DNA of 63,209 bases, filler included, from Reclinomonas americana ATCC 50394 (taxonomy: Eukaryota), in the NCBI GenBank assembly GCA_048213135.1. It is 27 parts of 27 records of this genome, joined end to end, with 100 filler letters (N's around TTAATTAATTAA, not from the genome) between each part and the next. Parts side by side here need not be neighbours in the genome. Positions count along the whole stretch, not along the records: positions 15,695 to 19,603 come from AFZH01024463.1; positions 19,704 to 21,594 come from AFZH01024464.1; positions 21,695 to 22,936 come from AFZH01024465.1; positions 23,037 to 24,957 come from AFZH01024466.1; positions 25,058 to 26,326 come from AFZH01024470.1; positions 26,427 to 32,808 come from AFZH01024471.1; positions 32,909 to 34,089 come from AFZH01024473.1; positions 34,190 to 35,762 come from AFZH01024474.1; 19 more parts are not named here. One strand, given 5' to 3'. Below are positions 15,695-58,720 of this stretch, piece by piece (the first letter of the stretch is position 1; every line of letters begins with the position of its first letter). A model generated the notes under the pieces. It ran no database searches, was not told the origin of the DNA, and saw only the letters and a program-made list of their open reading frames with translations. The translations under genes and the position numbers were made by a program.

Positions 15695-18600
15695 CAGTGA
15701 CAGTTGGTGGCAACGGACTGCTGCTGCCGACGGGAACGCCGCCGTTCACGTTCAGTGTGTGCGTGCAGTACTCGCCGACACCTGGATCGTACTTCAAGGT
15801 CGGGACGACGGAGTTCACTGGAGGTGAGTTGATTGTGGGGGGAAGAGGGGAGGGGAATCGGAGGAGAAAATGAGTTGGATGGCTGACTGTGTGGCACACA
15901 ACAGTGTCGACGACGTCTGGATTCACTCCGAGTGTGATCAATCGAGTGGGAGCTGGAGCGGCGTTTACGATTCTCGGGCGCGGTCTGTCGACGAATGATG
16001 TTGTGCGACTGGAGGTGGGATCGACGTGCACGGCGAGTGGCGGCAGCTTCCCGGTGATGGTGAATGGATCGGTGAGCGGCGGACCGGGAGCGCGACAACT
16101 GGCGGTGACAGCGCAAGGTGCGACGGTGGCGACCGTGAGTGCTGGGAATTGTGCGGTGTGCATTCGGTTCGGCAACGTCGGCAACTTTTCACTGGTTGGA
16201 TCGGTACAACTTGCTGTGGCCGAGGTGACGTCTGTGAACCCAACGGCGATGGTGCGATTGAGTGGACGGAGTTTGCGGCTGTCGGGAACGGCGCTTGCGA
16301 ATGCTGGATCAGATGCACTGGCGTACCTCATCGCGGCAGACTGCACGGTACCGAGCACGGCTGCGCCGACTGCCGTGGGGACTTTGACACACACGTGGAC
16401 GAGTACGTCGCTGGTTGCACTTGTCGTTGACGCGACGAGCATTCCGGTGGGATCGTACAAGATCTGCGTGCGGTGGCAGTCGACGGCGCTGTACTCGACG
16501 ACCGCTGTGACGCTGATCAATGTTGGTGAGTTTTGCGAAGGAGCCTGGTGGTGTGCGTCTCTTGTGTTCCTGTTGTGCTTGTTCGCTGACTGATCCATCT
16601 CTCTGCGTGTCTCATCCAGTGTCATTCGGGTCGCTTGTGCCGCTTGCGGTGGGCGCTGTGGCATCGCAGCCGCTGAGTGTGACGGGTACGTGGTTTGTGA
16701 ACGTGTCTGGTGATGGAGCGGCGTTCGTGATTGCGACATCGTGCGGATCGACGGCGTCGGCGGCGGTGATTAGTGTGTCAAGCGGGACGTACCTCAGCGG
16801 GTCGACGAGCATGAGTCTGCTGTCGACTGCCAGTGGTGTTGCCGGCGGCGTGTACAGCTTGTGTGCGCGATGGAGCAATGCGACGCACGCGCAGTACTCG
16901 TTGGTGTCGCCGATCAACGTCAGTTGCGTGACTTGATTGTCTCGTTTTGGCAACGACGGGTGCTGACGTGATTTGTTGTGTGCGCGCTGCAGGTACATTC
17001 AGCACAACATCGGTGCCGGCTGTGAATGCGCGATCAGGCCAGGTGGTGACGCTGAATGGGGCGGGCTTCTTGGACCTGCGGTCAGTGACGCTTGGTGCGG
17101 CCTTTGATGCGTCGGCCATTATTATCGCGGCCAGCTGCTCGACCCCGACAGCGACAGCGCCGACTGTGGCAGCCAACACGTCTGTTGTTGTGAGTGGGTA
17201 TGCGGGGACGACGCAGATGACGTTGACGATTGATGCGACTGGAGCGACGGGAGCTGCGCGGCAGCTGTGTGTGCGATGGAGCAGCACGGTGCCGTACATT
17301 TCGGTGTTGCCGCTGAGTGTTGGTGAGTGAGTGTTTGTGCAATCTGAGTGGTCGAGGCGGAAGTGGGCGAAGAGGGATAGAGAGACAGGAGGGGAGTGGC
17401 TTGATGATAACTCACTGAGCGTGTTTCGCCGATGCAGCGTCATTCAGTGCCACGACACCGCCCACTGTGGAGCCGCTTGCGGGACGCACTGTGACTCTCT
17501 CGGGACTCGGCTTTGTGGATGTTTCGGCTGATAGCGGGGCGTTTGTGGTGGCAGCATCGTGCAGTGGGTCGCCGACGTCGGTGGCCACGGTGACCAGCAT
17601 CCAGTTTGTGAGCGCGGCGTCGATTGTGCTGACGGTGGATGCGAACGGAGCGAGCAGCATTGGTCAGCGGCGTGTGTGCGTGCGATGGGCGCCGTCGGAC
17701 CCGTACCAGGATGCCTTGCCGCTGAATATCGGTGAGCGGGCGTCGAAATTATGGAGTGGCGCTGAGTTGATGCTGACTCCGTTGTGTGCGTGTGATCAGC
17801 CAATGCAACTTCGTTCACGCCTGAGACGGTGCTGGCGGCGACGGCCAGTGCGCAGTTCACGATCACTGGCGTGTACATTGATGCGGCGAGCCAAGTGCGA
17901 TTCGAGCCGGGGACACTGTGCAGCGGCAGCGGGGGTGGTGTGATGGGAACCGTGAATGCCAGTGGCACATCGACACTTGGCGGTGGTGCGACGACACTGA
18001 CGATCAGCGTGGGTGGCGGCGGATTGCCGAGTGCTGAGTACAGCCTGTGCATTCGGTTCTCGGCACTGGGGACGTACTTCAAGGTGCCGGGCAACGTGTT
18101 TGTTCGTTGCGTGCGGCGGAGAATTGTGTTGCCATTGTGATGGAGGTCATCTGGCGCTGAGGTGGACTGACATGGTTGGTCTGTTGTTCTTCACACAGCG
18201 TCGACGCAAGGGTTTGGGCCAGTGTCTATCTCGGCGGAGGTTCCGACGGCGTCGGTGACGGTGAGTGGCGTTGCTCTTGACATTTCGCGGACGGTGACGC
18301 GAATGCGACTGGAGACCGGAACGAGCTGTGCGACGATGACGAGTGGCGGTCTTCAAGTGGCGACGCTGTCGTCGAATGTGGCGCGCACACAGATTGTGGG
18401 TGTGATTGGCGGGGTGGGTCTGCTGTTGCAGGCGACTCCTCCGGACACGTTCAGTGTGTGCGTGGAGTATCTGGCGCAGCCGGGTGTGTTTGTCAAGGTC
18501 GGGAGCACGGAGATTGTCGGAGGTGTGTGGCAGAGAGAGAAGGCGGGGGAAGAGATATGGTGCGGTGGACTCACTGTGAAGTGCGCAGTGGCACTTGGAA

Positions 18601-19603
18601 CGGCGTTTTCGCCGGCGCGCATCCGGGCCGAGGCTGGCGGCGACAAGTTCACCTTGAGTGGCCTCGCATTGCGGGCGTCGGATGTTGTGCGACTGGAGGC
18701 TGGTGTTTCGTGCACGCCTGGAGCTGGTGCTGCGGGAGCGCTTGCGTCGTTCCCTGCGACGGCACTGGTGATGGGCGGCATGGCTGGAGCACGTACAACG
18801 GTGATTACGGTGCCGACTGACGCGTGGGTTCCAGTGAATGCGTATGCGGTGTGGTGAGTGGGGTGAATGAGAGGAAAAGATGGAGGGTGGTCTGTTTAGC
18901 GACGATGATTTGCGGCGACATGTTGCTTACTGTGTGGATACGTGGTGCAGCATCCAGTATGGCGGCGCTGGCAGCTTCTCGCAGATCTCGACGACGCAGT
19001 TGACAGCATGTGAGTGGCGACGAGGATGATGATGATGATGATTGCAGGTTGTACCTGGATTGGTTTTGACGTTTTGCGGTGCACAGATCCGACGGCAGAA
19101 GGATTCCAGCCGAATCTGATCAATGCCGAGGAAGCGGGCGCTGCGCTGACGGTGCTCGGGCGTGGACTGGCAACACCAAACGTGGTGACCCTTGTCGCTG
19201 GCTCAACGTGTGCTGGAGTGGCGACACCTGTGCCGCTGCAGAGCACGGCCGAGACGGGCATTGCTGGAGCACGACAACTGGTGGCGAAAGCGGCGTCGGT
19301 GAACGACCTGCTTGCGGTGGGACCGTACAGCGTGTGTGTGCAGTTCCCTCCGGATCCGATAGTGTATCAGGCGGGAGCGAGTGTCATCACTGCAGGTGTG
19401 TGTGAGAGCGACAGAGTGTGTTTATTTGTCGTGTGTGTGTCTCATTTATAACCCTGTTTTGTGCTGCAGTGGGATCTGGCATCAACTTTTCACCTGTGAC
19501 GGTGTCGTTGGAGTTGGTGGGAGCGCCAGTGACTGTGACAGGTCGTGCACTGTCGCTGCTGGACACCATCACGCTGCAGAGTAGCGCTGCGTGTGATGGT
19601 TCT
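15695..19603 (+). CDS. Large eukaryotic multi-exon protein of tandem ~100-aa Cys-paired Ig/IPT-like repeats (partial)
   Basis: Recurring unit F(S/T)P..I...G...T(L/V).G.GL...C...GAR.L...G.Y.VC..W across GT..AG-bounded exons. Confidence 0.8.
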
Positions 19604-19703
19604 NNNNNNNNNNNNNNNNNNNNNNNNNNNNNNNNNNNNNNNNNNNNTTAATTAATTAANNNNNNNNNNNNNNNNNNNNNNNNNNNNNNNNNNNNNNNNN
19701 NNN

Positions 19704-21594
19704 GGATGCGCCTGCGATCCCACGTCTGGACGGTCGCATTGTGCGACTGAACGGTGCATTCATGGTGGATGTGTCGACTGACACATCGGCTCTGCTGATT
19801 GCTGCATCGTGCACGACTCCAAATTCGAATGCACCAACTGCGGTCGCGGGCTTGAGTGTTGTCAGCTCGTTTGTGAGCGGCACTGTGACGTCACTTGTTG
19901 TGAATGCATCAACGGTGACGAGTGGGTCGTACTCTGTTTGTGTACGATGGCTTCCAACGAGCGCGTATTCGACTGCGGCGGCGCTCAACGTCGGTAAGCT
20001 TGTTGTGTGTGTTGTGTGCTTGATTTTCTTGCAATCATGGCACTGAGCACTCTCTCTGTGCGCCTTGTTGCACAGTTACCACGACGTCGATTTCGCAGAC
20101 GACAGTGAGTGCGCTGGCCGGTCGTTCGCTGACTCTTGTCGGCGCCAATCTGGTGAGCGTATCGGGCGATGCGCTGGCGTTTGTGATCTCGCCATCATGT
20201 ACGACTGTGATGGCGGCTGCATCGACGTCGATTACGTCGGCGTTTGTGTCGTCGACACGGATCGACATGGTTGTGAACGCGGCGGGCGCGACGTCGGGAG
20301 CGTACAAACTGTTGCGTTCACTGGGAATGCAGAGTGCGGTGGATGTGATGAGTGCGGTTGACTGACGCCACAAGCATTGCGCGTGTGATTATTATGTGCA
20401 GGTGTGTGCGGTGGTCGTCGAGTGCGCATGTGCAGTACAGCGAAGTGTCGACGTTGAGCATTGGTGAGTTGTAATCGAGGTGATGACAGGGAGAGTGGCA
20501 AACGTCACTGACAGCGCATCATGCACGCAGCAACGTACACATCACTGTCGGTGGTGTATGTGAATGCGCGAGCGAATCAGGTGGTGACGCTCAGCGGCGG
20601 CGGATTCGCGGATCTGACGGCCGCAACACTGGGCGGCAGCTTCGACAGCGGGGCGATTGTGTTGTCGGCATCGTGCACCAGCACGCCGGTGGTGGCGGTG
20701 GCGAACAGCAGTGTGGTGTGCGCGCAGTACGGAGGCGTGGGAACGATGGTGTTGAATGTGGGTGCCAACATGGTGACGTCTGGCACATACAAGATGTGCA
20801 TTCGGTGGAAGAGCTCTGTGGCATACGATGACACTGGTCTCACGCTTGGAGTCGGTGAGTTTTTCCTTTCCCTTCCTCCGTTGCCTGTGTGCATGGGCGC
20901 AGCAGGTGATCAACTGACTCTGTGACGTGCACAATGCAGGCGGTGTGCAAGCCGTGTCGCCGCCAGCCGTGCTGCAGAAAGTGAACCAAGTTGTTTCGCT
21001 GACTGGCGCCGGGTTTGTGGACGTGAGCGGTGATGCGAATGCTGTGATTGTTGCGGCGTCGTGCTCGGTGCCGAACACGGTGGCTCCGACGGCAGCGGCA
21101 CCGGTCGTGGTGCAGTATGTGGATTCGTCGACGATCAAGCTGACAATTGATGGACGTTTGGCTGCGGCGGGGACGTATCGTGTGTGCACAAGATGGGCGC
21201 CGACGCAGGCGTACCAAGATGCGATTGCACTGAATGTCGGTACGTAGTGGAGGATGGATGTGTGATGGTGTAGACGCATTGGCTGAATTTGTACACGACA
21301 CAGCCACTGTGAGCATGGTGGTGCCGCCTGCGATGGGCACACGAGGAGTGGAGCGAGTGCGATTGATTGGTGGCGGTCTGCTGAGTACAGCGACGGATGC
21401 AAACTCGATCGTGTTGGCCACAGACACGACGTGCGCGACTGTGGTGCCGACGGTGAGCATCAGCAGCATCAGCAGTGTGAGCAGCAGCGAGGCTCGTGTG
21501 TCGGTGACGACGAATGCGACACCGGCCGGGTTCTATCCAGTGTGCATGCGATGGACGAGCAGTCTGCCGTACTTTGCGACAGACGTCGGTGTGC
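19704..21594 (+). CDS. Same repeat-protein family, partial
   Basis: AASC...P, G.Y..CVRW and GFVDVS.D units; phase-1 introns between domains. Confidence 0.8.
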
Positions 21595-26426: not shown

Positions 26427-28362
26427 CATCCAGTGGCGTGCCGCCTCGAGTTCCACAACTGGCCTTTGTGCACAGTTCGGCGGCGCGCACCGATGATGTC
26501 GCCGGCTCGCCGCGCATGGCGGCAGATGGTATGGCGTCGCCTCCGCGCTCAGCACGGTCCACCATCAGCATGCAAGCCACGTTCCCCACACCACCGGCGA
26601 GCGCGCGTGGGCGTGCGTCTCCGAGTGCCATCAACGCGCTCCCGCAGGCCGCCATTCCTGCCCGCCTGGAGATGCCCACCATTCCGACGCTGCCGCTCGA
26701 AGTGATGGTGGTGGCTCCGGCCGGGCCCAATTCCGACAGACGGTCGGTGGCGTTGGACGGAACAGTGGCTGCACGCATGTACATTGTGCCGCCGGAGGCC
26801 GTGGGTCTGGAGAACACGCATGCGCCGCTGGTATGACGTGAAAATGTCCCCTCTGCTGCATTATCGTGTGTCTCGTGTGGCTGACTTGTGAATTGTGTGT
26901 GCGCAGCGGGTGAACTGCATTGGCGAGCTCGATTTCTACGAGTACTTTGTGCCGGCTGCCGATCGCATGCTCGTGGTCGACATGAACACCGACGAGGACT
27001 CCCCACCGCCAGCATCGGCTCCGAGTTCACGCCCTTCATCGCGGCAACGGCGTCGCCAGCACCCCTCGCCACGCACGTTCCTCGGCTCGAAGCCGCAAGG
27101 TTTGCACTTGTCACGATCGTCCACGAATCGTGATGGCTGGCTCATGTCTCTGCGACGCACAGTACCATTCGTGTCGTCGGTGATTAGTCCGCGAGTGACG
27201 GAAAAGCTCGAGTTTGAGCGACAGCGACAATTGTCGCCGGAGCTGCTCGAGGAGTACACGCCGCGAGTCAGGTACACTTACTGTCTGTGTGTGTGTGTGT
27301 GTGTGAGTGCACTCTCGCTGGCAGGGAGCATTCTTTAATTACTGTCGTGCCAGACCTGTAAGTGCCACGTACTGGGCATCGGGACCGACCAGCCCGCAGC
27401 GCAGGCGCGTTGAATCGCAGCAAGGCAACCGTGTACGCCGCAAGCCGACGGTGCACGAGATCCTGACCAAGGACAATGTGCCAACCGTCCGCCGTGCCTT
27501 CAAGCGCTCGCTCGACCGCTTCGTGACGATGAACGCTCGTCGACAGATGGAGTTTGCACGCGAGCATCGATACCAGCAGCGACAGACGCTCTTCCAGCAC
27601 CCATCGGAATTCGCCATTTCTGCCGAACACCCACTGCCGCGCATCTCACCGCGCTGGCGACGCGAGACGCCAGCAGACCCGGTACGCCCGCGTTGTGTGA
27701 TGCTTGTGTACTTTTATGCTTGCGCCCTTACTAATTTTGTGTCGAGTAGATGACTCGCGGAGACGAGTTCATGTCGACCTCACCAGTCGTTGCGTCTCTC
27801 CTCTCTTCTGTCTTTCAATACGTTTCTGTTCCTCACACGGCGTGTCCATTGTTGCAGGAGCCGCCTTCACCCCTGACGCCGTCGGAAGTGACGCTGCGTG
27901 CGCCGGTGCGACGGGGAGCGTTCCGACCGCCTTCGTCGACGCGAGGGGGTGCCGACGACAGTGAGTCGTCACAGCCGTCGCCGCCGACACCGGGACCGCC
28001 ACCGAGTTTGAGCGATCGCGACAGCGTCAAGGCGTCGGTAAGTGCACGGAGTGGCGAGGTGGTGGTGCTCTCTTGCTGCAAGCGATCAACTCAACTCACC
28101 GAGTTGGTTGTGCGCGCGCCAGGGTGTTACATTCTTCCGCACCCGCCGCATTGTGTACTCGCCCTCACAGCATCGCACCGGTCGTGTGAAGGACACATCG
28201 GGCGACTTGTACATTGACTCGTCTTCGCGGCGCGTCGGCAGTCGCCAGTCGCCGCCGTCGAGAAACGAGCACGATTTTGATCAGTGGCGCCACCAAGGCC
28301 CCTACCCCGAGGTCACCCTCGATGAGTTGTCGCAGCTCTCCGACGGCTACGATGACTATTAG
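26427..28362 (+). CDS. Unknown eukaryotic multi-exon Pro/Ser-rich protein, 5' partial
   Basis: Coding-like blocks separated by GT..AG introns; ends ...SDGYDDY*. Confidence 0.55.
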
Positions 28363-28496: not shown

Positions 28497-31082
28497 TCAC
28501 AGCGGAACGTTGTCGAGGAAGCGCTGGAACATGTTCATCGATCTCTCTGGTTGCGTGGCGGGCGCCAAGTGGCCTGCAACACAACAACGCAATCAGTAAC
28601 CACGAATCGGCTTGGCAATCAGTGGAAAGAAGAGCGTACGCACCGGCGAAACGAACAGTGGTGAAGGTGATGACCTTGCGACCAGTCGGATCCGTGTACT
28701 CCTCGACACGGCCGCCGACCTGGTTGTTGATGGTCCACGCACGGTAGTTGACGCTGCGCGTCAGAAGCTGACCGAGCCAAGTGCGAGTGGAGGTGAATGG
28801 CACCACACTGCATGTCGAACACGTCAATGGCGTCAGTGCATTGCAGCGAGACGGGGGAAGAGGGGGGGAGCATGCATCACCTGTCGACATCGCCAGAGTA
28901 CAGCAGAATGCGCAGCTGGTAGGGGAAGAGCTGCACGTACGTCGGCAACATCGAGCGCGCAATGCTGTCCTGCGAGTAGTTGACTGCGTCGCTGCAAATG
29001 TTCCAGCGGAACTTGGGCGGCAGCGTGCGGCGATTCACGTGGAGCGCCGCCTGCACATCAGGGCGGTTGAGGTAGCCTGTGTAGCAATACACATAGCAGT
29101 GAGCGCGTCGGTGTGCTCGGCAACCTGTGACAGAGACTTGATAAACAAACCAGACACCCAGTTGTCAATGCACGGGTCGGCCGGTGTGTCGCCGACACGC
29201 GCCGACTGCTGCACGCGATCGTGGACATCGCGAACGACGCGGTAGGGTGAGTGCGGGTTGGCCTCGGCGATCTTGCGCACAAGACGGTGGGCGGCGTTCT
29301 AAACGCAAAAAATGGTGAGCAACTGATCACTGCTCCCAGTGCGACAACACACGGACACGCAACGTCGCCACTGCTGAGGCACACTGGGCGGTACAGGTCG
29401 TCTGTAGGAGAGAGGAGAGGCATGAGCGACGTCGCCATCACTTCGTGTCGGGCGGAAAGGGGGACAAAACGCAACACATGTCAATGTTGCCGGCCTCCTT
29501 GCTTGCCACCTGCTGCGCGGCATCACACTCGGCCGGATCCACCGACGGTGCAAACGGACCACCGCAGTACTGGTTGAGGCTGGTGTAGGTAGAGTTGGAG
29601 ATGGTGGCCGTGTTCCACCACATGCGAGTGGTGCCCCACTGCAGCACAACGTGAGATCGACAGTGTTTGAAAAAGTGTACGAATATACACAAACACACAC
29701 AAACCTGGTTGACGTCTCCCCATGTGTACGGGTTGCCTGCGATCGACGGTCGTCAGCGACAGTGGGGGAGGACACAAACACACTCGACAAGCACACACCA
29801 ATCATAAAGCCGACCAGGTTGATGTCAATCTACACGCGCGAAGAGAGATTGTGTTAATAACAACAACAGGCGCAAGCAAACTCCTCTCTACGCACGTTGC
29901 GGCGATCGGCATTGCCTTGCAGAATAGCCATGGCCAGGTCGGGGACGTAGTGACCGGCTGCAGACACAATAACAGACATTAGCACAAGCACAAGTGACAA
30001 GCTCACCGACAGCACTGAGATCTCACTCACCATACGATTCGCCAGTGATCCAGAACGGGCGACCCTGCAGATCGGGGTACTTGGCAAAGAACTTTTGCAA
30101 AAATAGGTACGAGTCGGCTGCGATGGATTGATGAGCACCACGTGCAAACCGCGAAAAGAGGCAGTGCAGACACGAATGCACGCAACAAGCCGTCTTGTTG
30201 TCATTCGTCGTGTAATCCTGCATGTTATCCGAGTAGCTGAAGCCCACACCCGCCGGGCTCTCCAAGTACAGCATGTTCGCGTAGCGGTTCCAGCTGAACG
30301 GGTTGGGTTGCACATTCAGGTCCTGCGGCGCACATAAAATGAGCACGGTTATCGCTCGTGCTTGGTTGTGCACGTCAAGCTCACCGGATTCGGCCAGAAG
30401 GGACCTGTAACACGAGTGAGAACGTGTGCAGCAAGGAATAGCAGGCGGCGGAGGGAACGCACCATTCTCCTCGAGCGCGGCAGTCAGTGACGAGCAGCCA
30501 GGGCCACCTGTTGTACACACACAGAGATAGAGTGAGCACGAGATGGTGAAGGGGTGAGTTGTGCGAGTAATGTGCACACCATTGAGCCACAACACAACCG
30601 GATCAGTGGCAGGGTTGCGTTGGCTCTGGAAGTACCAGTAGAACAGATTGCTGCACAAGAGAGTGGAAAAATGAGGCCCGACGCACGCATCTTCCCTCAC
30701 TCAAAAACACACACACAAACCGATTGTGAGAAGCATCCACAGTCAAGTACCCAGCGTAGTGCTTGAATGGCACTTGCTGATCGTATCCAGGCAAGTCAGT
30801 GACACGATCACTCTCTGTGCGTGCATGATGAGTGGGGGTCAATGTCAAGGATTCTCCGACAAACTCCCCCCTCTGCATGCAAACTCGTGGCAGACAGCAG
30901 AACGACGGAGAACATGTGTGTGTGCGTGCAAGGAGTCACGTGACTGCGTGGTGTGTGTCTGTTTGTGTGCGTGTGCGTGTGTGAAAGTGCGGACCATCTG
31001 CCATGGCGCTTGACACCGCCACCGCAAGCAGCAGCGCAACCACGGTTGCTGCGCCAACAGTCCACACAGACCGAGAACGCAT
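28497..31082 (-). CDS. Serine carboxypeptidase (peptidase S10), multi-exon
   Basis: Signal peptide, LFYWYF, WLNGGPGCSS, SPAGVGFSY, GESY (catalytic Ser), YSGDVD, FAGH (catalytic His). Confidence 0.95.
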
Positions 31083-32007
31083 GTCTCTCTCAAAAACAAA
31101 CGACGAAGAGAACGAGGTGGCGAGCGTGTTCCGGCGCGAGTCTGTCCCACTGTAGACTGCGTTTCTATTCTCATGGCCGCTGCAGCGAGTGCAAGTCGTG
31201 CTTTCGACCTCGGTGAATCCAGAGAGGCAGCCGAGATTGCGGTGCGTGCTTGGTCGTGAAGAGTGCGGCACGTCGCAGCTGCAGATGATCGCCGCAGCGA
31301 TTGCGACCAACTGCAGCTGCATGCGGATCCGGAGTCTCTTTGATCTCGAGCTCGTGTACCGAGACATAACACCTCAGGTGATGGGTGTAGTACTCACTGC
31401 CGCTTTGCGTGTGCAGTCCACCTCGTGGCCGGCGCCGATATCGCGATCGATCGTGCATGTCGCTATTGAGATCTCTGCTGCAGCGGTGCCGGCCGACGTG
31501 GAGCTCGAGGATCGGGTACAGAGGCACCGGTACGCACTCGAGCAGCGAGTGGCAGCGATTATGGTCCGGCACCAGCGTCCTCCTCGATCAGTGCGTGTTG
31601 CGATCGGATTCGTTTGAATTCGCAAACGAGGCTGCGAAACCTGTTAATCTGGCGGCACACAGAGGTTCTGCACATCGCATGTGCACACGTATGTGCACCG
31701 GGGATAACTCGCCGGCGATGGATCGGGAGACGACGTCGACGTCGAGCGCAGCGCTCGCTGCGCTGCGGCAAATGAATTCAAATTTCGCGATCGTAATCGC
31801 CAACGATGTGCAGTTCTACTCCACCACGCTATCCACCGCCGCACCCGCAGTACACACACGCTCAAGGCAACTGTTTTTCACTCACTCACAAATCCACCCA
31901 TCCACCGAGCCGACCGGTATTTGGCGTTGTGTGTCCTTGGGCGGGAAAAAAACTTGTGAAGTGTGTGTGTGTGTGCGTGCGAGTGAGTGCGTCACAGCAG
32001 CAGCGCA

Positions 32008-40624: not shown

Positions 40625-40725
40625 TGTTGTTGTTGTTGTTGCTGCTGTTGCTGCTGTTGTTGCTGCTGTTGTTGTTGTTGTTGTTGTTGCTGTTGTTGTT
40701 GTTGTTGTTGTCTTTGTTGTTGTTG
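40625..40725. repeat. (GTT/GCT)n trinucleotide tract in the LINE 3' region
   Basis: Seen directly. Confidence 0.9.
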
Positions 40726-40872
40726 GTGGCGCGCGGTGGCGGTGGTGTTGGCTCCATGTATGCTCAAAGCCCTCTACCACTGGCGGGGTCGCAGCACAAG
40801 CGTGTCTTCCACTCGCATCGACAGTGAGGGAGGCATTGGTGTGGAGTAGAATAACAACAACAATGTTGCATT

Positions 40873-42958
40873 TTATTCACACCCGTTACCATTCGCCTCG
40901 TCTACCATCTCAGGGGCGGCACCGGCGGCCTCCTGGTGCTGCAGGCGGCGCTTGAGAGCATCTCGCAGTCTGTTGCGGAAATGCAAGGGAGTCGTTCGCC
41001 ACGCCAGCGTGTGGTGGGACATTAGTTCCTCCCGCGCTGGGATGACATGGCCGAACCAACTGGCGACGGCCTTGACAAGGTTGCTGTTGCAGGGCGGAGA
41101 GGCGAGCGAAACGTGCCGTGTGTGCGGGGTGCCGGGGTGGAGAGTGACGATGCCGCCGAGAACAAAGGTGACCACTTGCTCCGGCAGCGCTGGTGTGTCC
41201 GTGCCGAGTACGCGTGTGACCAGGTCAGGGAGACTCGGTTCCGTACAGCCGTGGCTCCGCGTCAGTGTTGTCCAGTGCGGACAGTAGAGCAGGTGCGTCA
41301 ACGATTCGCCGCCGTCGAGAGCCTGCATGCACGCTGGGCATACGCCGTAGAGTGTCGGTTGCAGCATGTCGGCGTGGACGAGTTGGTTCGCAAACCATAA
41401 GTCGCTCAGTCGGGCTCTGTTCCACTGGAGCACCGCGTCGTTGTTGATTCGGGGGGAGAGTGACAGTATGCGGCGGAGGGCCCGGGCGGGTGCCACCTCG
41501 TCCTGCCGTCTAGCCAGGTAACGCGAAAGAGACGTGCTGTGGAGCAGGTGCCTCTCGCGGTCCGCCAAGAATGCGTCAACCGCGTCCACCATGTCGTCGA
41601 GCAGTCTCGTCCGTTCCTCGACCGCCGCTGGCGTCAGTCGGGGGTCGTGTATGTCACGAACAAAGTCGACAAGGCGGTTGAGGGCCGTTCTCGTGCGTTC
41701 GTTCGCCGTCGTGACCCAGTGCAGACACGCATGTGTCCACGTATTGTGCGGCGAGTTGGTGGTGAAGTTGCCAGTCCGAAGCGTGCTCTGTAGCAGATCT
41801 GCCAGCACCGTCTGCGACGAGAGGCCGCGTCGTATGAGCCGGACCATCGCACCAGTGAATCTCGAAAACAGAGTGCGTACGCCAAGCTCGGCACAGAGGG
41901 TGTCGAGGGCGGCGTGTTTCGTGCCAAGCAGTGTGTGGAAGGCGGCGCGCAGCTCCTTCACCAGTGCCGTGTCGTTGGTCAGTGACAGCTGACCTCCAAT
42001 CAGGGCTCCTCCGTAGTCGATGACCGAGAGCAGCAGCGCTTGAACCAATGTACAGCGCGTTTCCAACGGTGCAGAGTGGCTGCCAAGCAGGTCGGTAATC
42101 GCCCCGCGTGCCGCCCTTGTCCGCAATACCCGATCCGCCGTCAGGGTTCGCAGCGAGAGCGCAGAGTCGACACACAGGCCGAGGTAGGAGAACTTGACGA
42201 CAACCTCGAAACGTTGCGACTGGATCTCCAAGTGGCCGAACTCAGGCAGTTGCAAGTGGCGAGGCAGCGGGCGCGACATGCGTTCTCTGGCCACCGCGTA
42301 GACGTGTTCCTCTGACGGCCGTCGTTGACGACCGGCAAGCCGTCCGGGGACAAGCATGCCGACCGTCTTACGGTGATTGGCGGTGAAGCCGTTCAGCGTC
42401 AACATTGTGGAGAGCAGTGACAGAGCCCGTGACATGTTGGCTGCTGAGTCCGAGATCAAGGCGATGTCGTCGGCGTACAGCAGGAGCGCGAGGTGTCTGC
42501 GCAGTGCGGGGAAGAACGGGGCAACATCGTTCCAACACAGCGCCTCAGCACGGCGGCTGTTTCCGTCCACCGTCACCATCCATTTGCGCGTCGGCTGCAC
42601 AATATCGACCAGCGCCACTGAAAATAAGAGGGCCGAGAGCGCGCAACCTTGTAGCAGGCCTGACTTGATGTGGGGCCGCCACGTAGTGTCGTCCCCGGTT
42701 ACGTAGTGTCGGCCTCCAGCCGTCGCCATGACAACGAGCGGCTTGTCGTACAGAACCTCCCGAACGCAGACCGCCAGCGCGGCCAAGCGTGGGATGCCGA
42801 TCCACGTTAATTTCTCCCACAGTGCGGTGCGGCATACGTGGTCGAAGGCATTGGAGATGTCGACAAACGTCAGATACGTGTCCTCTCCGGCGAGTTGGCG
42901 TGAGCCGACCGCTTCGTACAACGTCGCACAGGCCATGGTCGTGTCGGTGGATGCTCAA
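40873..42958 (-). CDS. LINE ORF2: reverse transcriptase plus C-terminal CCHC knuckle, 5' partial
   Basis: FVDISNAFD, GLLQGCALS.LLF, YADD, KFSYLG, CPAC...ESLTHLLYC. Confidence 0.93.
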
Positions 42959-43557: not shown

Positions 43558-43589
<32 letters not shown>

Positions 43590-44587: not shown

Positions 44588-45919
44588 TCAACCACCACCG
44601 CCGCTGCCACGCGCAAGACGCACCATGCATTTCCACCGAGGTGACGGCCCAGCGCGCTCGTCCCTCGTCGTCCTCCTGCACCTCGACCGTAATGACGGCA
44701 AAGTTACCGTCCCTGTGCAACACGATGAGCAAACAATGGAGGTGTGTGGCTCGCACTCCTCCCCGATCGTCGTACGCAACAGCAGACTGCCGGGGTTGAC
44801 GACTTGGACGCGGCCAATCAGCGACGTGCCACGGCTGTTGTGCACATGTCCGTGAATGTTGGCAATAATGTTCTGCTGCGACGACGGCATGCCCAGAAAG
44901 TGTGACAGCGCAATGGAACCGGCGTTGATCGGCGGATCCACCACGCTGTCCACACTGGTGACCGATTCTGACGGCCCGAAGTGCGTCAGCAGCAGCACAC
45001 AGTCGTCCTCCTCAATCACACCCGAGCCGTCTCGCGGTGACGAGAACAACTCCGAGAGCAGCGGCTCGATCTGCTCCTCGTCCTGGAACGGGAAGCCCTC
45101 CCACTCGTCGTTGAGTGAGGGAATGGAACCACCGAGACCTGGAGCACAGTCAGCCGACAAAGAGAGAAGAGAGGTAGAGAGGGCAGTGAACGAACCGGCC
45201 ACCACCAGCCCGTCGGCCAGTCGATGCACAGCCAGGTGCACGTTCCTCGAGTACGGCGTCAAGCGCGGCGCTCTGCCATTCGACATGCGTACGGGGTGCC
45301 GTTTCGACGGACCCTCCATGCCGAGAAGGGTCCACGCGTCATGCTGCATGCATACAAAAGCAACGAGGTAAGCAAGCGCCGTGGCCAGTCAAGCTCACCA
45401 CCCGCACGCAACATTGCCGGGCACATAGACGACATTGGTGACAATGTTCTCCAGCTCCGACAAGACGCAGCTGGCATCGCCCTCGCCCGCATAAAACCGC
45501 TCAGGCACCAACTGATCGGCGGTGGTGAGCTCAGCCAGGTCGCCCGGGCAGATGATCATATCGATCCCGCCGGAGCCGAGCGCCTCATCGTCGCGCACAT
45601 CCATCTCATCAAACGACTCGTCGAGCCCCACCGGTGCCAGTAACCCAGACGAAGACGGCAGTGGCGCAGGAGGTGGAGGTGGAGGCGGAGGAGTCGATGG
45701 TGGCACAGCACCAGCGTCACCACTCATCGCCACATCATCATCATCACCGGCATTGGCATCGAGTCGTCGCTGCTGATGCTGCTTCTGCAGCTCCTGCTCG
45801 TAGGTGACCACCCAATCGCTCAGCTGGTGGATGCGCTCCAGTGCGTTGTGAATGTCGCTGGCCAGCAGAATGCGCAAGCAGCGCACGGGTGCACGTGGCC
45901 ACGTAAACGGTGCAGTCAT
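44588..45919 (-). CDS. Calcineurin-like metallophosphoesterase, multi-exon (3' end approximate)
   Basis: SDIH, PGDL, VPGN|HD (joined across an intron), LTH.GP, HGHVH, NPGSL. Confidence 0.88.
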
Positions 45920-46142: not shown

Positions 46143-46289
46143 TCACGCATTGCCTCTTGTTGCTGACGAGTCTGGTACCGGCGATGATGATGATGATGCA
46201 GCAGTTGCTGGCCAGTGCGGAGGCGGCTCTGTTCTCATTTCCCACACTGGATTGCTTGGTGGCTTGGTGTATCGATAGCGCAAGTCCTG

Positions 46290-46323
<34 letters not shown>

Positions 46324-46709
46324 CTGTCACTCGTCGTCCTGTGCAGGTGCTCTCCATCTCCTCACTCACCTGCTCTGACTTGGCGTCGCGGTTGTACTTG
46401 AGTTTCATGCAGTCGACCATATCACGCCACGCATGCCCGCAGTCGTCCACGCGACCAAAGCGATAGTAGCTGCGGAACTGATTGGCTGGAGCTGCATGCA
46501 AATGCAACAACGCTTGAGTGGCGCTTCATCGTGGGCCGTGTGCGGATGAGGGACGAAGTGTGAGAGTAACTGAAGCAGTACCACAACTCGTCCATGTACT
46601 CCCAGCACTTGAGTGGCGCTTGCGGTGGATCGCTGGGTGAGCGAGGTGGGTAATGGGCAGTCACCCACCGTGGCCCCGAGTGCATCGGCTTGTCGTCGCC
46701 CTCTGACAT
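46143..46709 (-). CDS. EMI1/DUF3128-like small Cys protein, 3 exons
   Basis: CWEYMDELWYCF|TPANQFRSYYRFG..DDC...W.DMVDC; last exon contains VWEMR.EPP. Confidence 0.75.
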
Positions 46710-46895: not shown

Positions 46896-49240
46896 TCAGT
46901 GAGCTCTGCGTCGACTGGGAATGATGAGCGCCTCGAGACTCATGAATGGTCGCTCCACGAGCAAGTACAACAGGTACGATCCCAAGTAGGCAAAGAAGAT
47001 GTTGCCGCAGCACTCCACCGTGATTGCCTGCATTTAAGAGAGTGTCAGCAACCTCTCCGCACACAGTGGCCAATGGATGGCGCGTACCGGAATCGAGTAC
47101 TGCACAGTGAACACAAGACTTTTAGTCACAGTGCGGAGGACAAGATTGCACCGAGTATTGCTCACCTCGAGGAAGTGCGTGCGCAGTGAATACGAGATCA
47201 AGATCCCTGCGACAATCGATACGGTGGGTGACAGGAAGAACTCAAAATCGACACAAAACACGCGTTGACGCACAGGCCGGATGCAGCAGGTAGGCGCCGT
47301 ACGTGAGCCGTGCCAGTGGTGTCCAGTATTCTGCACATCACACGCAACGTCAACATCTTACCACGCAACCCCACTTGACACGCAACAACTCACCCGCCGA
47401 CAGGAATCGACGCCACAGATTCGTCACAATCACGAACCGGAACGAACTGCCAAGACAAGTATCCGCATCAGCGTTTGCGCAGACAGAGGAGAAGAAGCGT
47501 GTTCGAGACTTGCCTCTTCTTCACACTCTCAATCATCAAGTACAGCATCACCGCCAGCGCGAGACACCAGGCCGGACGACTGAACGTAATGTACATGATC
47601 TGGTGGTAGTGGTAGTGTGAGATACAACACGCATCAGAAACTCTCGCAGCGACGAAACATTGTTGATATCGCCCGGCGTCCAGTTCTGACCCAGTGACTC
47701 GTACAGATTCACCGGACCAAAGACGCACGCACCAAACACCGCAAAGCACGCCAGGTACAGCAGCCAGTGCACCGCAACCACCGACCGCGACTCGGAGGTT
47801 TGTTCGGCCGCCAGCTTGCCGGTGCGGAATGCCTCCAGTTCACGCTCACGCGCCGCCTCACGCTCGTGCAACACAAACGCCAGACCCTGCAAGAATGACG
47901 AAGAGTCAGCCTCACTCTTCCCACCATTGACGAACAGAGATAGACGCACCACGCCAACCAGGTAGGCGGGAACTCGGGCCCACGGTCGTCCATAGTAATA
48001 ATTCCTGCGTTGATTCTGAGAACAGGCCACGCGCGGTGCTGCACACATGCACGTGTACATACCAGTAGCTGTCAGTGGGAGCAATGATGTAGAACGAGAT
48101 GTCCTTGAAGTGCACCACGAGTGCCTGGTCCACCGAAGAAATGAGCAAACATCGACTCGACATCAAATCTGCAATCACAACTCACCGACGACAAGAGGCT
48201 GCCAAACATCACCACTCCAACCAGCGTCCAGCCAAACCACCGTCGACGAGCGTACGCGAACAAGAAGATCGGTGTAATGGCAAACGCCCAAAAGTCACAG
48301 GCCAGGTACCTGTGCAGGTGCGTGCAACTCTGTAATGAATTCACGGATGGACATCGCACACGAGAGTGACGCACCACACCCAGCTAACGCATTGATTGGA
48401 GAAGCTCCACGGGTAAAATGCGTTGAGGAAGAGCAGCGGCTGTCGACGCGAAAAATGATCGTGGCTGAGAGCGAGCAGCGACATGGCAAAGCACACGACA
48501 TCGCAGCACTAAACAAACCGTCCACCAATACTGATCACACGTCTGGTGATACATCTGCTGATACTGAGGCCAGAACGGTCCATCGCCCACGTAAGGTGTC
48601 AACTGTGAAAACAACAACGACGACGGTGGTGGTGAACTCCAAGATGCTCACCAGCACCAAGCTTTCACAACCGCAACACTCACCTTCCACACCACAAAGA
48701 TCATCACCGCCAGACTCGGAGTCAGTCGCCAGATGCGATGGAAGTAGTACAGCAGCAGGTTGAGCGATCCGCGCTTCGGTGGCTCTGTGTGGCGACGACG
48801 ACAGGAGTGTCAGCTGCAAATCATGTCGGTGGTGAAAGCATTAGAGAGAAGAGACCATCCAGTCGCTGGTGTGGCAGCAGCGCTCCGAGGGCCAGATGCG
48901 CCACCAACAGGCCCGACAGCATGAAGAACGTGTCGACCGCGAACCTGTGTGCCTGTGTGTGTTAGAAGCGAGTGACAGCACTGTCTGGCATGTACGTGAC
49001 ACGGAACTCAGCTGCAAACAGCAACACATGGGTGAGCACGATTCGTGACATTCATGAGGAAGAAAGACAAGCCACTCACCGCCGGCGATGAGAGCAATGG
49101 GCCACTGCGTGCCGAATCCACCCGGCAAGAAGACAGACACCACATTGTAGACGTACTGCAGCGAGAACGAGTGCGTGTGGCCAAGTACGCTGGTACGTGA
49201 TACAGTTTGTTTGTCAGAAAATGGAAAGCATGAAGAACAA
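46896..49240 (-). CDS. Acyltransferase-3 (NRF-6/OAC-like), multi-exon, 5' partial
   Basis: VDTFFMLSGLL, GDGPFW, WYLACDF, YYYGRPWAR, terminal YLLVERPF. Confidence 0.8.
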
Positions 49241-53279: not shown

Positions 53280-56200
53280 CTCTCCACTCGTACTCACAGA
53301 CGGTAAGTTGGCCACCGGTGACGGCAGTGAACGATCCGACGCCACCAAACTGAATGCTGTAATACACAGTGTGAGTGAATGGAATACGCTGACTCAAACT
53401 CGCTTCTCGCAGAGAGTAAGAGGAAGGAAAACGAGCTTTTTACGCAAAGAAACCACCGCCGAAGACGACCAAGAATGCTCATTCAGTCGATGCAAATGTC
53501 TCCAGTCTACAAAGTCCATCCACTATCCTCTGCAATACAGGGCTCTATTCCAACGTAATCTCGTGCACCTCGCTCAACATACATGCTTTCATCCACAGTG
53601 TCTCTCTGGCCACATAACGCATCTCACAACTCACTCATTCTGTTCACCGTTGCTTCCCATTCCTCCTCCCTTCACCTCCTTTTTATCCGTGCCGGCTGAG
53701 CTGGTCTAACTCTCTCGCCCTCGCTCACTAACTCACGTCTACACGCACATCACACTGGACAAGCTGTCGCACACGGAAACAACCGCACAATCTCATTGGT
53801 CCCAGTTTCTATTCACTCCATCTCACTTCTCACCTCCTCTTTTCTCTCTCTTCTTCCCCTCTCCTCTTCCCTTCTCTTCTCTTCCCCCACCTCCCTTCTC
53901 ATCTCTTCCCCTCCATTCCCTTCTCCTCCCTTCTCCCCCCTCTCCTCCTTTCCCTTCTCCTCCATTCCCTTCCCGTCCATTCCCTTCTCCTCCCCCCTCT
54001 CCCTTTTCCTCCCTCCTCGCACCACACATAGAATGATCCAACTGGAACAGAGTTCTCCGCAGTCGTCGCCACGACGACCTCACGAGCCGACGCCACTCCA
54101 CCAAACGACTGCGCTGCGAGACGATAGGCAGTCGCCCCCGAACACGTTCCAGAGGGCATCAGCTGCACGTTATCCGATGCCAGCAATCCGTGACCGGTAA
54201 CAGTCAGCAGCGCGCCAGCCAGCTGGCCAGTAATGGTGGAAGGAGTGAAAGCATCGGCACTCGACACTGGTCACACAAGCACGGTGAGGGAACGGAAGCC
54301 GCAGTGGTTTCCAAACACGGAAAGGAAGCTGTTTACATACCGACTACGAGAGCCGAAGTCGGGACCATGACGTACGGGTAACCGAGTGCACCCACAAAGT
54401 GATAGCTGTTGATCGAAAGAAATTTAAGTACCAAGCAGTGGAGATGCACAAAGTTACTTCATGGATTGTGATGGATGACTGACCAAACAGCATAGTAGCC
54501 ACGTGGCAGGAAACTCGTGTCCAGTGTCACAATCTTGTGCAACCCACCAGCCACTGACGTCGACGTGAGCGAGTACGATGTGGCAGTGTCGCAAGACACG
54601 AAAACACTCGTGCCCAAGAAGAGTGCAGCAGTATCTGTCAGTTGCAAACCGGCACCCGTAATCGTTAACTGCACTCCGGCAGTCTCCGCGACGATGGTTG
54701 CCGGACTGTAGCCGGTAACTACCAGAGGAGTCACTGGACGACAAGTACATGAGCAACGACGTGGCAACGACCATGATGCACGATGCGCGACATCAACGTA
54801 CCAACGGAAATTTCAGTCGTGCCGACTTTAGAGTACGCGCCTCCGGTCGGATACGTCAGTTGAACGCTGTGACGGGATATCGACGATAAGCACAGCAAAT
54901 ACGATGACAAGTAAATGAGCAGCGCAGATAGGGGATGCACAAGCACGACAGACGCGACATAGCGAGATGGCAAAACACCTATTCTGCTTCTCTGTAAGCA
55001 CCCGAGGTGAAATAAAGAAGATAGAAAGTACAAACAAAGGGCGTCTGAGCTGACAAAGATCGCGATGAATTGAGCGTAGAGAGACAGCCCAGCGCTTCTC
55101 CAAAACAAACCACACAGAGTAGGTGCCATTTGTGAGACTGGTATCTGGTGTGAATGCCGTCTTCAGCCGCGCTCCTGCCACGCCAGCTGTTGCAGCACTC
55201 GGAGTCAAAGGGAACTGCGGACTGCCGCTGCAAGTCGTCCCAGACACCAGCTTGACTGCATCGGCCGCAAGAAGGCCGTGCCCCGTAATGGTAACCACTT
55301 GGTTGGCGGTTCCGGAGAAAATCGTGGCAGGCGAGAAAGCATCGGCCGTCTCGGCTGTTTTACAGCAGAACAGCGACAAGGAACCCAAGATGTAATGTGA
55401 GGCAGCACAATCAATGCCCATTGAGACCGTGATATGCACGTACCAGCAGTAATCGTGCCGCCAGAAACCGCCACATAGCCGGTGGTATAACTGAACTGAA
55501 TGCTGAAAGCGAAGAAACTTTGAGAGAGGAAGAAGAGGAGAGGATCATATGCAGTGCGCATTAGACTAGAAACGTGCATCCACTAACCAAATAGTGTAAA
55601 GACCCGCCGGAATGGTGAGACCAGGAGTGGAAACCGTCAAAACTCGCGCACCCGCCGATCCGCTAAATGAGCCCGGAGACAGGTTGTACGTTGTACCCGC
55701 GCATCCGACACCGGCAGCAAGTTGCACAGAATCGGAACCGGCAAGGCCGTGACCAGTTACGGAAATCACCTCGCCACTGGTCTCGGAGCGTATCGATGAA
55801 GGAGTGAAGGAGTCGCCGCTTGCACCTGTGGTAATAAATAGATTTTGAGAAGAAGGATAGACATGGGGAAACGAAAAGGAGACAAGGTAACAACGAGAAA
55901 AAAGAGGACGGCATGTGTGTGAACGCACCAACTTCCAATGCACTGCCGACACTGACAAGACTGCCAGCAGCATCGTACTGATAACTATGAGAAGAGTAAA
56001 GCAGAACCGAGTGAGCACAACCGACATCCGCAGCAGCAAGAGACCACCAAATCCAAAGCATACCACACAGTGTAAAATCCCGCAGCGATCGCAGTGCTCG
56101 ATGTGGTGAATCGAACCGTGCGCGCACCCGCACTACCACCGACTGTACCAGTTATCAACGTGAATGAAGTCGAACCACCACAAGTCGCACCGAACACAAG

Positions 56201-57208
56201 TCGCACAGCATCTGTGTTTGACAAAGCACGTCCAGTTACTGTCACGACTTCGCCAGTCGTCTCTGCAGTGATCTTTGACGGCGAGTATGACGTTGCCGAT
56301 TTGGCTGTAATGGAGCGCACAACCAGTTAGCGGAAAAGAACTAAAACTAGACCTTGAATCAAGAAAACAGTACGCAACAGACGGTCAGTGCTCCCGCCAA
56401 CGCCACAAACGATCCAGTGTTGTTGTACTTGTAGCTGTTCCATGCACAACACGTCAGTCGAAACAGCAGAAAATCGCATTAAAAGAGAATCACCTTGCAA
56501 AAAACACAACAAAACTACAACAGGCACGCCAGCCCAATCCCACCACCCACCGCATCCCATCTCATCTCTCCACACACACACTCACCACACTACATACGAT
56601 CCGGCCGGCGTCAGGTTCACATTCGCCGCAGTACCAACCACAGTCCGTGCTCCCGCAACACCACCCGCCGATCCCACCGTCAGATCGTACGTCGTCGCTC
56701 CGCCACACGAAGCACCGAGCACCAGACGAATCGCATCGGCCGTCGTCAGACCGCGCCCACTCACCGTGATCGTCTGTCCACTCGTCTCCGCCACAATCGA
56801 ACTCGGCGTAAACGTCTCCGCAAGTTTGTCTGCACAACAGAGGAGAGAAACCGAAAGAAAACCGAAGGGGAGAGGGGACGAGTGGAGACGCAAGCGTGTT
56901 AGATCCTTCGACATGTACAACTTCAGACACACTTACTCTCCCACACTCTCATTCTCTCTCACACACACATTCTTTCTCTTTCCACATAATCACTCAACTG
57001 ACATTCAAAAGCGTCGATGTCACTTGCACATATGCCCCCGTGCCGTTGAACCGATAGCTGCATGAGTGTCAGACACAATACACGAAGAAAAACACACAAA
57101 CACAACCACATCAAGTCAGTAAAATGCCGACTTTTCCTTTCCAAGCAAGAGCAGTATGTGCAAAACAGACAAGAACTACCCACAACCACCACCCATGGTG
57201 CAAACGTA
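53280..57208 (-). CDS. Cys-paired repeat-protein family member, multi-exon, partial
   Basis: Exons FSP..I.AE..G...TVTG.GL...D.V.L..G..C...AGAR...G.Y.V(C) repeated at least 6 times. Confidence 0.8.
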
Positions 57209-57308
57209 NNNNNNNNNNNNNNNNNNNNNNNNNNNNNNNNNNNNNNNNNNNNTTAATTAATTAANNNNNNNNNNNNNNNNNNNNNNNNNNNNNNNNNNNN
57301 NNNNNNNN

Positions 57309-57359
57309 TGCCCACCTCCACTCGTACAAGTAACTAGAACAATAAACAAAACAACAAAC

Positions 57360-57395
<36 letters not shown>

Positions 57396-58720
57396 AACAA
57401 CAATGTCATCAGCAAAAAAAAAACACACAAACATCATGCATCACGAGTCCTAGTTCACAAACCACACAAGATACGATCCACCCGCAAGACTGCTGTCGCC
57501 GGTCGACACTGTCAGTGTGCGTGCTCCCGCCGATCCACCCACTGCTCCGCTCGTCATGTTGTACGTCGTCGTGCCCGTCGTACACGTGCCGCCGCCACCA
57601 GACACCAGTCGCACAACATCAATCGCAGTCAGTGCTCGACCAGTCACCGTCACCGTCTGTCCAGCTGTACTGGCACCGATTGCAGCTGGAGAGAACGACT
57701 CCGCCAGCTTGGCTGTGATGCAATGCACAATGAAACACAATCCAACAACATCACAACAACATAAAACAACAACAATGAAAGAAACAGTACGCAACACACG
57801 CTCAGTGCTCCCGACAGCGCCACAAACGACCCAGTGTTGTTGTACTTGTAGCTGTTCCATGCACAACACGTCAGTCGAAACAGCAGAAAATCGCATTAAA
57901 AGAGAATCACCTTGCAAAAAACACAACAAAACAACAACAGGCACGCCAGCCCAATCCCCCCACACCGCATCCCATCTCATCTCTCCACACACACACTCAC
58001 CACACCACATACGATCCGGCCGGCGTCAGGTTCACATTCGCCGCAGTACCAACCACAGTCCGTGCTCCCGCAACACCACCCGCCGATCCCACCGTCAGAT
58101 CGTACGTCGTCGCTCCGCCACACGAAGCACCGAGCACCAGACGAATCGCATCGGCCGTCGTCAGACCACGTCCAGTCACCGTGATCGTCTGTCCACTCGT
58201 CTCCGCCACGATCGCACTTGGCGAGAATGACTCCGCCAGTTTGCCTACAAAAAAAAAAGAATCAGAAATAAAGGAAAGAGTGGCGGTGCAGCAGCGCATC
58301 CAGTTTGCAAGTACTCTCTCTCACTCACTCTCTCACTCTCACTCTCACCCTCCCTCTCCCCTCTCCCCTCTCCCTCCATATCATGACGCAACTGACTGTC
58401 AGCAGCGTCGATGTCACTTGCACATATGCCCCAGTGCCGTTGAATCGATAGCTGCATGAGTGTCGGACACAAAGCACGCAGGAAAACACATACAGCCACC
58501 ACATCAAGTTAGTGAAATGCCGACTTTTCCTTTCCAAGCAAGAGCAGTATGTGCAAAACAGACAAGAACTACCCACAACCACCACCCATGGTGCAAACGT
58601 ACCACACAGAATACTGTCCCGCCGGCGTCAGATTCACATCACTCGTCGTCACCGTCAATGTCCATGCACCCGCTGACCCGCCCAGCGATCCACTCGTCAT
58701 GCTGTACGACGGCGATTCAG
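57309..58720 (-). CDS. Cys-paired repeat-protein family member, partial
   Basis: Same unit; about 0.8 kb largely shared with 56363-57208. Confidence 0.8.

Follow-up and report, generated by a model that had tools for sequence, protein, structure and literature searches.

A candidate class of H/GUUGCGU donors with a one-base-displaced signal in the introns of a putative intron-dense protist

In a 63,209-base stretch of DNA deposited for Reclinomonas americana ATCC 50394 (GenBank assembly GCA_048213135.1; hereafter the window, meaning this stretch at its full length), the heptamer GTTG[CA]GT was found to start 13 of the 79 introns in a curated catalogue (16%), among them 12 of the 54 introns of grade A as defined below, in seven genes on six contigs. 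The exon base preceding this heptamer was never G (0/13), whereas G preceded 59 of the 66 other donors (Fisher p = 2.9e-10), in good agreement with an earlier reading of the window from its sequence alone (the sequence-only reading), which had claimed that the last exon base was never G at the 12 sites it listed; the class accounted for 13 of all 20 donors without an exon-final G. These introns appear to belong to a very intron-dense protist in which about one sixth of the donors form a discrete class H/GUUGCGU (H, not G; a slash marks the exon-intron boundary throughout), and the explanation ranked first, at a probability of about 0.5, is that the ordinary splicing machinery reads these donors in a register shifted by one base.

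The window consists of 27 contigs of 1.0–6.4 kb each with N spacers between them (e.g., 1669–1768). Contigs with 65–71% G+C were revealed to carry uninterrupted bacterial genes (AraC regulator, OmpA, DsbD, ABC permease, sulfatase, and others), and contigs 1, 9, 10, 14, 20, 23, and 24, with 52–60% G+C, carried split eukaryote genes encoding a ZIP transporter, an S10 serine carboxypeptidase, a metallophosphoesterase-like protein, an acyltransferase-3-like protein, and a PANTS-like twin-CX9C protein, together with three genes of Ig-like (weakly TIG-like) repeats. The window is a mixed bin of bacterial and intron-rich eukaryote contigs and not one organism, and the donor-class finding applies to its eukaryote part, approximately 30 kb of one fragmentary assembly. 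It is plausible that the shared donor pattern ties the eukaryote contigs to one genome; the G+C content of contigs 23 and 24 was 6–7 points below that of contigs 9, 10, 14, and 20. A protein search against the ESM Atlas returned eukaryote clusters only, and two additional protein searches gave no matches.

The 11 GTTGCGT and one GTTGAGT reported by the sequence-only reading were present at every coordinate and on every strand it gave (minus-strand sites are numbered by their higher coordinate, which is the G of the donor), and each of these 12 heptamers opened a GT...AG intron of 65–169 nt ending in YAG. The GTTGCGT signal is positional, not count-based. The raw count of GTTGCGT was 19 as compared with 12.2 ± 3.2 in shuffled sequences, which was not significant (6 of 100 shuffles reached 19), and that of GTTGAGT was 5 as compared with 6.7. 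Among the 17 GTTGCGT copies on eukaryote contigs, 12 were intron starts, three fell within one other intron (47393–47331), and two were antisense to carboxypeptidase exons, the remaining two copies of the window being located on bacterial contigs. The host of the three internal copies is an ordinary 63-nt intron of the acyltransferase-like gene (47331–47393, minus strand, cgg/GTGAGTTG), in which three GTTGCGTG octamers are spaced 17–21 nt; these are the only gene-sense class motifs that do not start introns, and they could serve as decoys or as alternative donors, or simply make up a short tandem repeat. A role of GTTGCGT as a general intronic enhancer was considered and rejected, since the intron bodies, 6380 nt in all, contained only 2 copies where 0.85 were expected, and 21% of shuffles reached 2.

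The catalogue of 79 introns comprises 54 introns of grade A, supported by a Pfam match, a homologue alignment, or a paralogue pattern, and 25 of grade B, placed by splice signals and an open frame only. The first intron(s) of the acyltransferase-like gene and the region 31170–31990 were left out as ambiguous, and contigs 3, 18, and 19 yielded no introns. Gene-structure programs often erred at in-frame alternative donors (19994, 58602, 56063, and 47393), which were corrected by hand via paralogue patterns. Most introns measured 57–115 nt, and their density was very high, with 15 in the single 1.4-kb coding sequence of the S10 carboxypeptidase. The ordinary donors conformed to G/GT-NN-G-T: of 66, 59 had G at −1, 61 had G at +5, and 49 had T at +6, while none had G at +4; their most frequent cores were GTGAGT (15), GTGCGT (9), GTTTGT (6), GTGTGT (4), and GTACGT (4), and counted over five bases GTGAG (19) exceeded GTGCG (10). 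In the class, positions +1 to +4, +6, and +7 were conserved in 13/13 and C at +5 in 12/13, so that +4/+5 read GC in 12 cases and GA in one.

Beyond the donor, the class resembled the other introns in length range, branch-like motif, and YAG acceptors. All 13 had GT-AG ends and YAG acceptors, and a branch-like CT[CGA]A[CT] was located 7–50 nt from the 3' end in 10/13 as against 40/64 of the other introns. By these features, the class members appear to be genuine major (U2-type) GT-AG spliceosomal introns. An identity as U12-type introns was rejected, as neither the [G/A]TATCCTT donor nor the TTCCTT[G/A]AC branch site occurred in any of the 13 (motif definitions as given in bioRxiv 10.1101/2020.10.12.336362). 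A mobile, introner-like origin was rejected as well, because no similarity extended along the intron bodies: an all-versus-all BLAST of 77 introns minus their first 9 nt retrieved, apart from two microsatellite matches, only a recent pair of paralogues among the ordinary introns (56585/58000).

The relationship between the class and the ordinary donors was expressed with a donor profile made from 65 ordinary GT donors of the same organism. In the normal register, the class scored −6.6 to −10.1 bits, and in the +1 register, scored without the "+1" slot, it scored +7.8 to +10.1 bits, as compared with an ordinary mean of 7.08 over the same slots. The same kind of offset was seen with a different core in the donor aat/GTTTCGTC, which opens a 59-nt intron of the acyltransferase-like gene (47600–47658, minus strand) and likewise fitted only the +1 register (−1.6 bits in the normal register versus +7.5 bits). 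Since the shift puts the last exon base of the class in slot −2, which was G in just 2 of the 65 ordinary donors, the lack of an exon-final G is accounted for by the same displacement. The sequence grammar is therefore accurately described as that of an ordinary signal which is read one base further in and cut at the sole available GU. The sequence-only reading had described the class as ordinary donors with an extra T; the shift itself was borne out by the register profile, but that description predicts GTTGAGT at least as often, in disagreement with the C at +5 in 12 of 13.

In the proposed mechanism, the whole donor signal of the class would sit one base deeper in the intron. The G that usually ends the exon would become the first intron base, a U would stand where the first intron G is usually found, and the bases normally seen as U(+2), G(+5), and U(+6) would be met at +3, +6, and +7. 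The reader of ordinary donors, which we infer to be the 5' end of a U1-type snRNA (small nuclear RNA), would dock in its usual frame tolerating one mismatch, and the catalytic spliceosome would then cut at the sole GU in reach, one base upstream of the usual place. Both register-shifted and bulged U1 pairing are established in human cells (PMC4856993, PMC9311317). For the eukaryote of the window, the junction positions were demonstrated at the protein level and the class frequency, the profile shift, and the link to non-G exon ends at the level of genomic sequence, from which we infer that the transcripts are spliced at these junctions.

A competing reading of the junctions holds that real splicing takes place at the GC three bases downstream or nearby, the heptamer being a by-product of annotation. 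A GC at +4/+5 was indeed in frame at the 12 GTTGCGT sites, and the window contains one true GC-AG intron with a strong consensus (47447–47513, minus strand, gag/GCAAGT), the sole non-GT donor among the 79. A donor-blind dynamic-programming gene model, which drew its score from codon usage, the length of the intron, the branch motif, and the acceptor and asked of the donor only GT or GC, nevertheless took the GT of 9 of the 13 class donors unaided (missing those at 20311, 45412, 56998, and 27789), and the GCGTNN that such splicing would use is far from the AG/GCAAGT consensus seen at 47513.

The S10 carboxypeptidase gene provided a direct comparison with homologues. Its 15 introns were placed by hand, the first (30994–30815) having been added later by eye, and removal of the 14 introns downstream of 30800 gave an unbroken frame with the family motifs. 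The spliced product was aligned with 40 full-length homologues of 400–520 residues out of 120 returned, the best of which were at most 52% identical; the named matches came from plants, vertebrates, other animals, and protists, the last being mostly Amoebozoa (Difflugia, Mastigella, and Vermistella from EukProt; Acanthamoeba and Planoprotostelium) with one heterolobosean, which gives no more than a weak hint at the affinity of the organism. In this alignment, the spacing across the 69-nt class intron ctt/GTTGCGTG (30118–30186, minus strand; TA-S-DSY) was kept in nearly all rows, and that across the 74-nt intron tgt/GTTGCGTT (29402–29475, minus strand; IDM-Y-DLY) in about two thirds of rows. 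With this alignment, both junctions are fixed to the single base, and at both sites the GC reading would add a residue without counterpart in the homologues. Removal of the 65-nt intron gac/GTTGCGTG (29299–29363, minus strand) retained a conserved Cys; its exact boundary lies in a variable stretch of the family, and the alignment was no more than consistent with this junction.

For the TIG-like genes, alignment of paralogues fixed the junctions at 20311, 56378, 57795, 58392, and 56998 and supported that at 16923, and here again the GC reading would insert a residue that the paralogues lack. Removal of the 91-nt, phase 2 intron act/GTTGCGTT of contig 10 (20311–20401, plus strand) restored the G-x-Y-x-L-C-V-R-W spacing found in eight paralogous TIG-like domains. 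In contig 9, the 70-nt, phase 1 intron tca/GTTGCGTG (16923–16992, plus strand) lies at a domain boundary of a TIG-like repeat gene, and the 93-nt, phase 1 intron ttc/GTTGCGTG (18106–18198, plus strand), in the same gene, was placed by the reading frame alone, which a GTTCGT donor 4 nt upstream would break. The domain-boundary junctions in the copies of contigs 23 and 24 gave one pattern, V-[S/N]-K-[L/S]-A, at ordinary and class donors alike, with the Ser codon split as T+CC at 57795 and 56378 and as A+GC at 58392. These include the 74-nt intron tct/GTTGCGTA of the contig 23 gene (56305–56378, minus strand; domain boundary) and its paralogue in contig 24, the 83-nt intron tgt/GTTGCGTA (57713–57795, minus strand), which the sequence-only reading had rightly recognized as paralogous copies and not independent cases. 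A second paralogous pair was found in the 148-nt intron tca/GTTGCGTC of contig 24 (58245–58392, minus strand) and the 169-nt intron tca/GTTGAGTG of contig 23 (56830–56998, minus strand); these two have diverged to the point that the remaining intron sequence no longer aligns, though GTTG[C/A]GT is retained in both. The latter intron is opened by GTTGAGT, with GA instead of GC at +4/+5, and reading through its donor immediately encounters an in-frame TGA.

The remaining junctions were less closely constrained. In the metallophosphoesterase-like gene, the 69-nt intron aat/GTTGCGTG (45344–45412, minus strand) splits GN/HD, and exon 1 ends exactly at the last matched position of the Metallophos profile (69; profile 1–69), a weak match with an E value of 0.007–0.009, under the Pfam cut-off; a search of this exon against the PDB gave matches to low-complexity stretches only. 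The 68-nt intron gct/GTTGCGTA of the same gene (44713–44780, minus strand; NPGSL-L-DGNF) agreed with the frame, and homologues did not fix it. The thirteenth member, which the sequence-only reading had not listed, is the 69-nt, phase 0 intron gtc/GTTGCGTC (27789–27857, plus strand) in a gene without homologues, placed by splice signals and an open frame only. Of the four junctions that had been described as fixed by protein motifs, those at 29475 and 20311 were thus upheld by homologues and paralogues, respectively, that at 45412 had the weak profile match only, and that at 44780 was not fixed by homologues. Displaced splicing finds its room at 27789, 44780, 29363, and 18106, where homologues leave the exact position unfixed. 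Use of the GC located 3 nt downstream, which had been named as a refuting case, was excluded wherever it could be tested, namely by homologues, by paralogues, and at 56998, and we regard misplacement of the class junctions as improbable.

The TIG-like genes themselves deserve a brief description. Contigs 9, 10, 23, and 24 (15695–21594 and 53280–58720) carry secreted-looking genes with Ig-like repeats of approximately 100 residues and two conserved Cys residues, which gave weak TIG matches, each domain being encoded by one exon or an exon pair. Introns occur at two fixed places of the repeat, in phase 2 inside the second Cys codon and in phase 1 at the domain boundary, the 20311 intron being located one codon upstream of the usual Cys-codon position. 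Contigs 23 and 24 contain near-identical gene copies (56435–57208 and 57852–58720, both on the minus strand), in which one exon pair showed 95% protein identity and the intron pair 56585/58000 was 97% identical, in contrast to the class introns 56998/58392 between the copies, which have diverged beyond alignment; this suggests patchy gene conversion. The longest intron of the set by far is one of 666 nt (53357–54022, minus strand), mostly of GA-rich low complexity. Searches with a TIG-like exon against metagenome contigs gave 598 pattern matches, none of which was confirmed, and a search with a 206-aa TIG-like exon against genome contigs gave 180, likewise with none confirmed.

Given the fragmentary assembly of 27 contigs, it could be asked whether the extra T stems from a sequencing or assembly error, or whether the genes are dead. 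TT is not a homopolymer prone to length errors, an identical error would be needed at 13 donors, and exclusively at those without an exon-final G, it would have to recur independently in the paralogous copies of contigs 23 and 24, and the frames of all genes remain open. An artefact of this kind is accordingly regarded as extremely improbable. Sliding of the intron boundaries by one base was rejected outright, since it would need an exon-final G, which no class site has.

We then come to the manner in which the class could be recognized. Duplex energies were calculated with the textbook U1 5' end, which may differ from the organism's own U1, and ignore pseudouridine and proteins. Ordinary donors of the types G/GTGCGT and G/GTGAGT gave −5.06 and −10.6 kcal/mol, respectively, and in the shifted duplex the GTTGAGT site at 56998 gave −6.4 kcal/mol and the 12 GTTGCGT sites +0.5 to −2.0 kcal/mol. 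Several points weigh against shifted reading by the ordinary machinery. With a mean of −1.05 kcal/mol, the class was the weakest of the donor groups with more than two members, whichever register was used for the pairing, and identical exon ends followed by GTGCGT, GTGAGT, or GTTGAGT were predicted to pair better than the actual sites. A shift of the same reader would not lead one to expect C at +5 in 12 of 13 sites, as the corresponding slots of ordinary donors hold GA, GC, TT, GT, and AC. Paralogy reduces the class to about 8–10 independent cases, the catalogue was partly curated by eye by someone aware of the motif, 25 of the 79 introns were based on signals and open frame only, and the data are confined to approximately 30 kb of one fragmentary assembly. 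Fixation of the GC core by chance is unlikely, even with only about eight independent cases, and the weak pairing together with the fixed core suggests either strong help from proteins or a variant U1 with G and C opposite the middle positions. The claim of the sequence-only reading that the shifted register is routine in this lineage was supported by the 13 of 79 donors and by the profile fit, and was weakened by the poor predicted pairing of the class with textbook U1.

Two other modes of recognition bear on these data. In a bulged register, the first intron G would pair normally on U1, one U would be bulged out, and the rest would pair as GUGCGU; the bulge at +2/+3 has been validated in human cells (PMC4856993), and the downstream pairs are the same as in the shifted register. 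An exon-final G would, however, still pair and be favored, in conflict with its frequency of 0/13 as against 59/66 in ordinary donors, and G at −1 before the class was as rare as G at −2 before ordinary donors in the small set here. As the predicted duplexes were unstable in addition, we consider bulged pairing unlikely, if somewhat less so than misplaced junctions.

A dedicated reader would be a second U1-type snRNA, or an altered U1, fully complementary to GUUGCGU and forming a co-evolved pair with the splice site; the departures of the altered U1 from the textbook sequence would fall at both pseudouridine positions and position 8. This reading accommodates the near-invariance of the seven class positions (one C-to-A change), which holds more information than the ordinary donors do, the prevalence of C at +5 in spite of the excess of GTGAG over GTGCG among ordinary donors, and the very poor predicted pairing of the class with textbook U1. 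Co-evolution of an snRNA with its motif has a precedent in the U12 snRNA and branch site of Physarum (bioRxiv 10.1101/2020.10.12.336362). On the other hand, slot −2 of the class also agreed with the ordinary profile, an agreement that would not be needed if the reader were a separate one, and GTTGAGT (56998) and GTTTCGT (47658) would pair imperfectly with a variant complementary to GUUGCGU. The U1 5' end is, as far as is known, nearly invariant across eukaryotes, which counts against a dedicated variant U1. A search of the whole window found no Rfam family of any kind at gathering score, and so neither U1, U6, nor any other snRNA. A dedicated reader is held to be a tentative second choice, clearly behind shifted reading by the ordinary machinery, and with the same reserve we entertain its specific form, two U1 specificities in one organism, namely a standard U1 and a variant with exact complementarity to GUUGCGU and near-exact complementarity to GUGCGU.

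Apart from the class, a few genes and introns of the window are worth recording. Apparent AAG acceptors instead of YAG were observed in the introns 1231–1310 and 27272–27362 (both on the plus strand), the former being required by the frame and by the Pfam match of the ZIP transporter. The twin-CX9C gene (46287–46685, minus strand) belongs to the PANTS-like family PF11326 (E 1.8e-10), and the donor of its first intron, tca/GTTACTCT, is unusual in that it agrees with neither of the two registers. In the region 31170–31420 (plus strand), a gene without homologues contains possible introns of 39–43 nt with good donors (GTGCGT and GTGATG), which do not form part of the catalogue. An identity of the gene at 32008 as a dynein intermediate chain was dropped, as protein searches gave no support. 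Contig 19 holds a reverse-transcriptase open reading frame of 693 residues (39132–42958, minus strand) that adjoins an Asn-rich low-complexity stretch and is probably a retroelement of the eukaryote; a search with it against metagenome contigs gave 66 pattern matches and no confirmed relative.

For now, the class is offered as a lead for splicing specialists, drawn from protein-level inference over approximately 30 kb. The place where U1 binds and the site of cutting are normally locked together, the few human exceptions having been found singly, and a lineage in which the cut and the recognition frame differ by one base in a sixth of all introns would, if confirmed, constitute a natural experiment, bearing on the choice of the cleavage site after U1 leaves, on the tolerance of a first-base mismatch, and on the diversification of snRNA 5' ends. 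If there were two U1 specificities, the class would represent a third discrete class of introns inside the major spliceosome, comprising about one sixth of all introns, and a co-evolved pair of snRNA and splice site with cleavage one base upstream in the U1 frame. In such genomes, about one sixth of the introns would be mis-called by gene finders whose training donors were of the form GTNNGT.

Full-text literature searches, the scope of which did not extend to Roca and Krainer 2009 or to Roca et al. 2012, showed no report of such a donor class among the papers listed; the closest known systems are compared here. The human shifted-register donors (Roca and Krainer 2009, as described in PMC4856993 and PMC9311317) share with the class the GU-AG ends, the poor fit in the normal register, and the good fit one base further in, and cleavage there stays at the first GU, as proposed here. 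Those human sites are rare and were proven with suppressor U1 snRNAs, whereas the class amounts to 16% of a small curated set and is defined from sequence; it differs from them also in its near-invariant heptamer, its strictly non-G exon end, and its poor predicted pairing with textbook U1. The human bulge at +2/+3 was predicted at 68 of 201,541 donors, or approximately 0.03%, a number that curation reduced to 54 (Tan et al. 2016, PMC4856993). It resembles the class in the extra U after GU and in downstream pairs that are as in ordinary donors, but would favor an exon-final G, of which the class has none in 13. The U12-type introns of Physarum polycephalum (Larue, Elias and Roy, bioRxiv 10.1101/2020.10.12.336362) are likewise an abundant and sharply defined second class; they are served by the minor spliceosome and have [G/A]TATCCTT donors and a branch site of their own, whereas the class described here shares the ordinary branch and acceptor signals. 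Finally, the tunicate Fritillaria borealis (PMC13326754) exhibits a lineage-wide departure at the donor in which a shifted U1 register is likewise in question, but there the GT/AG rule has been abandoned in 95% of the introns, whereas in the eukaryote of this window GT-AG is kept and it is the flanking signal that is displaced.

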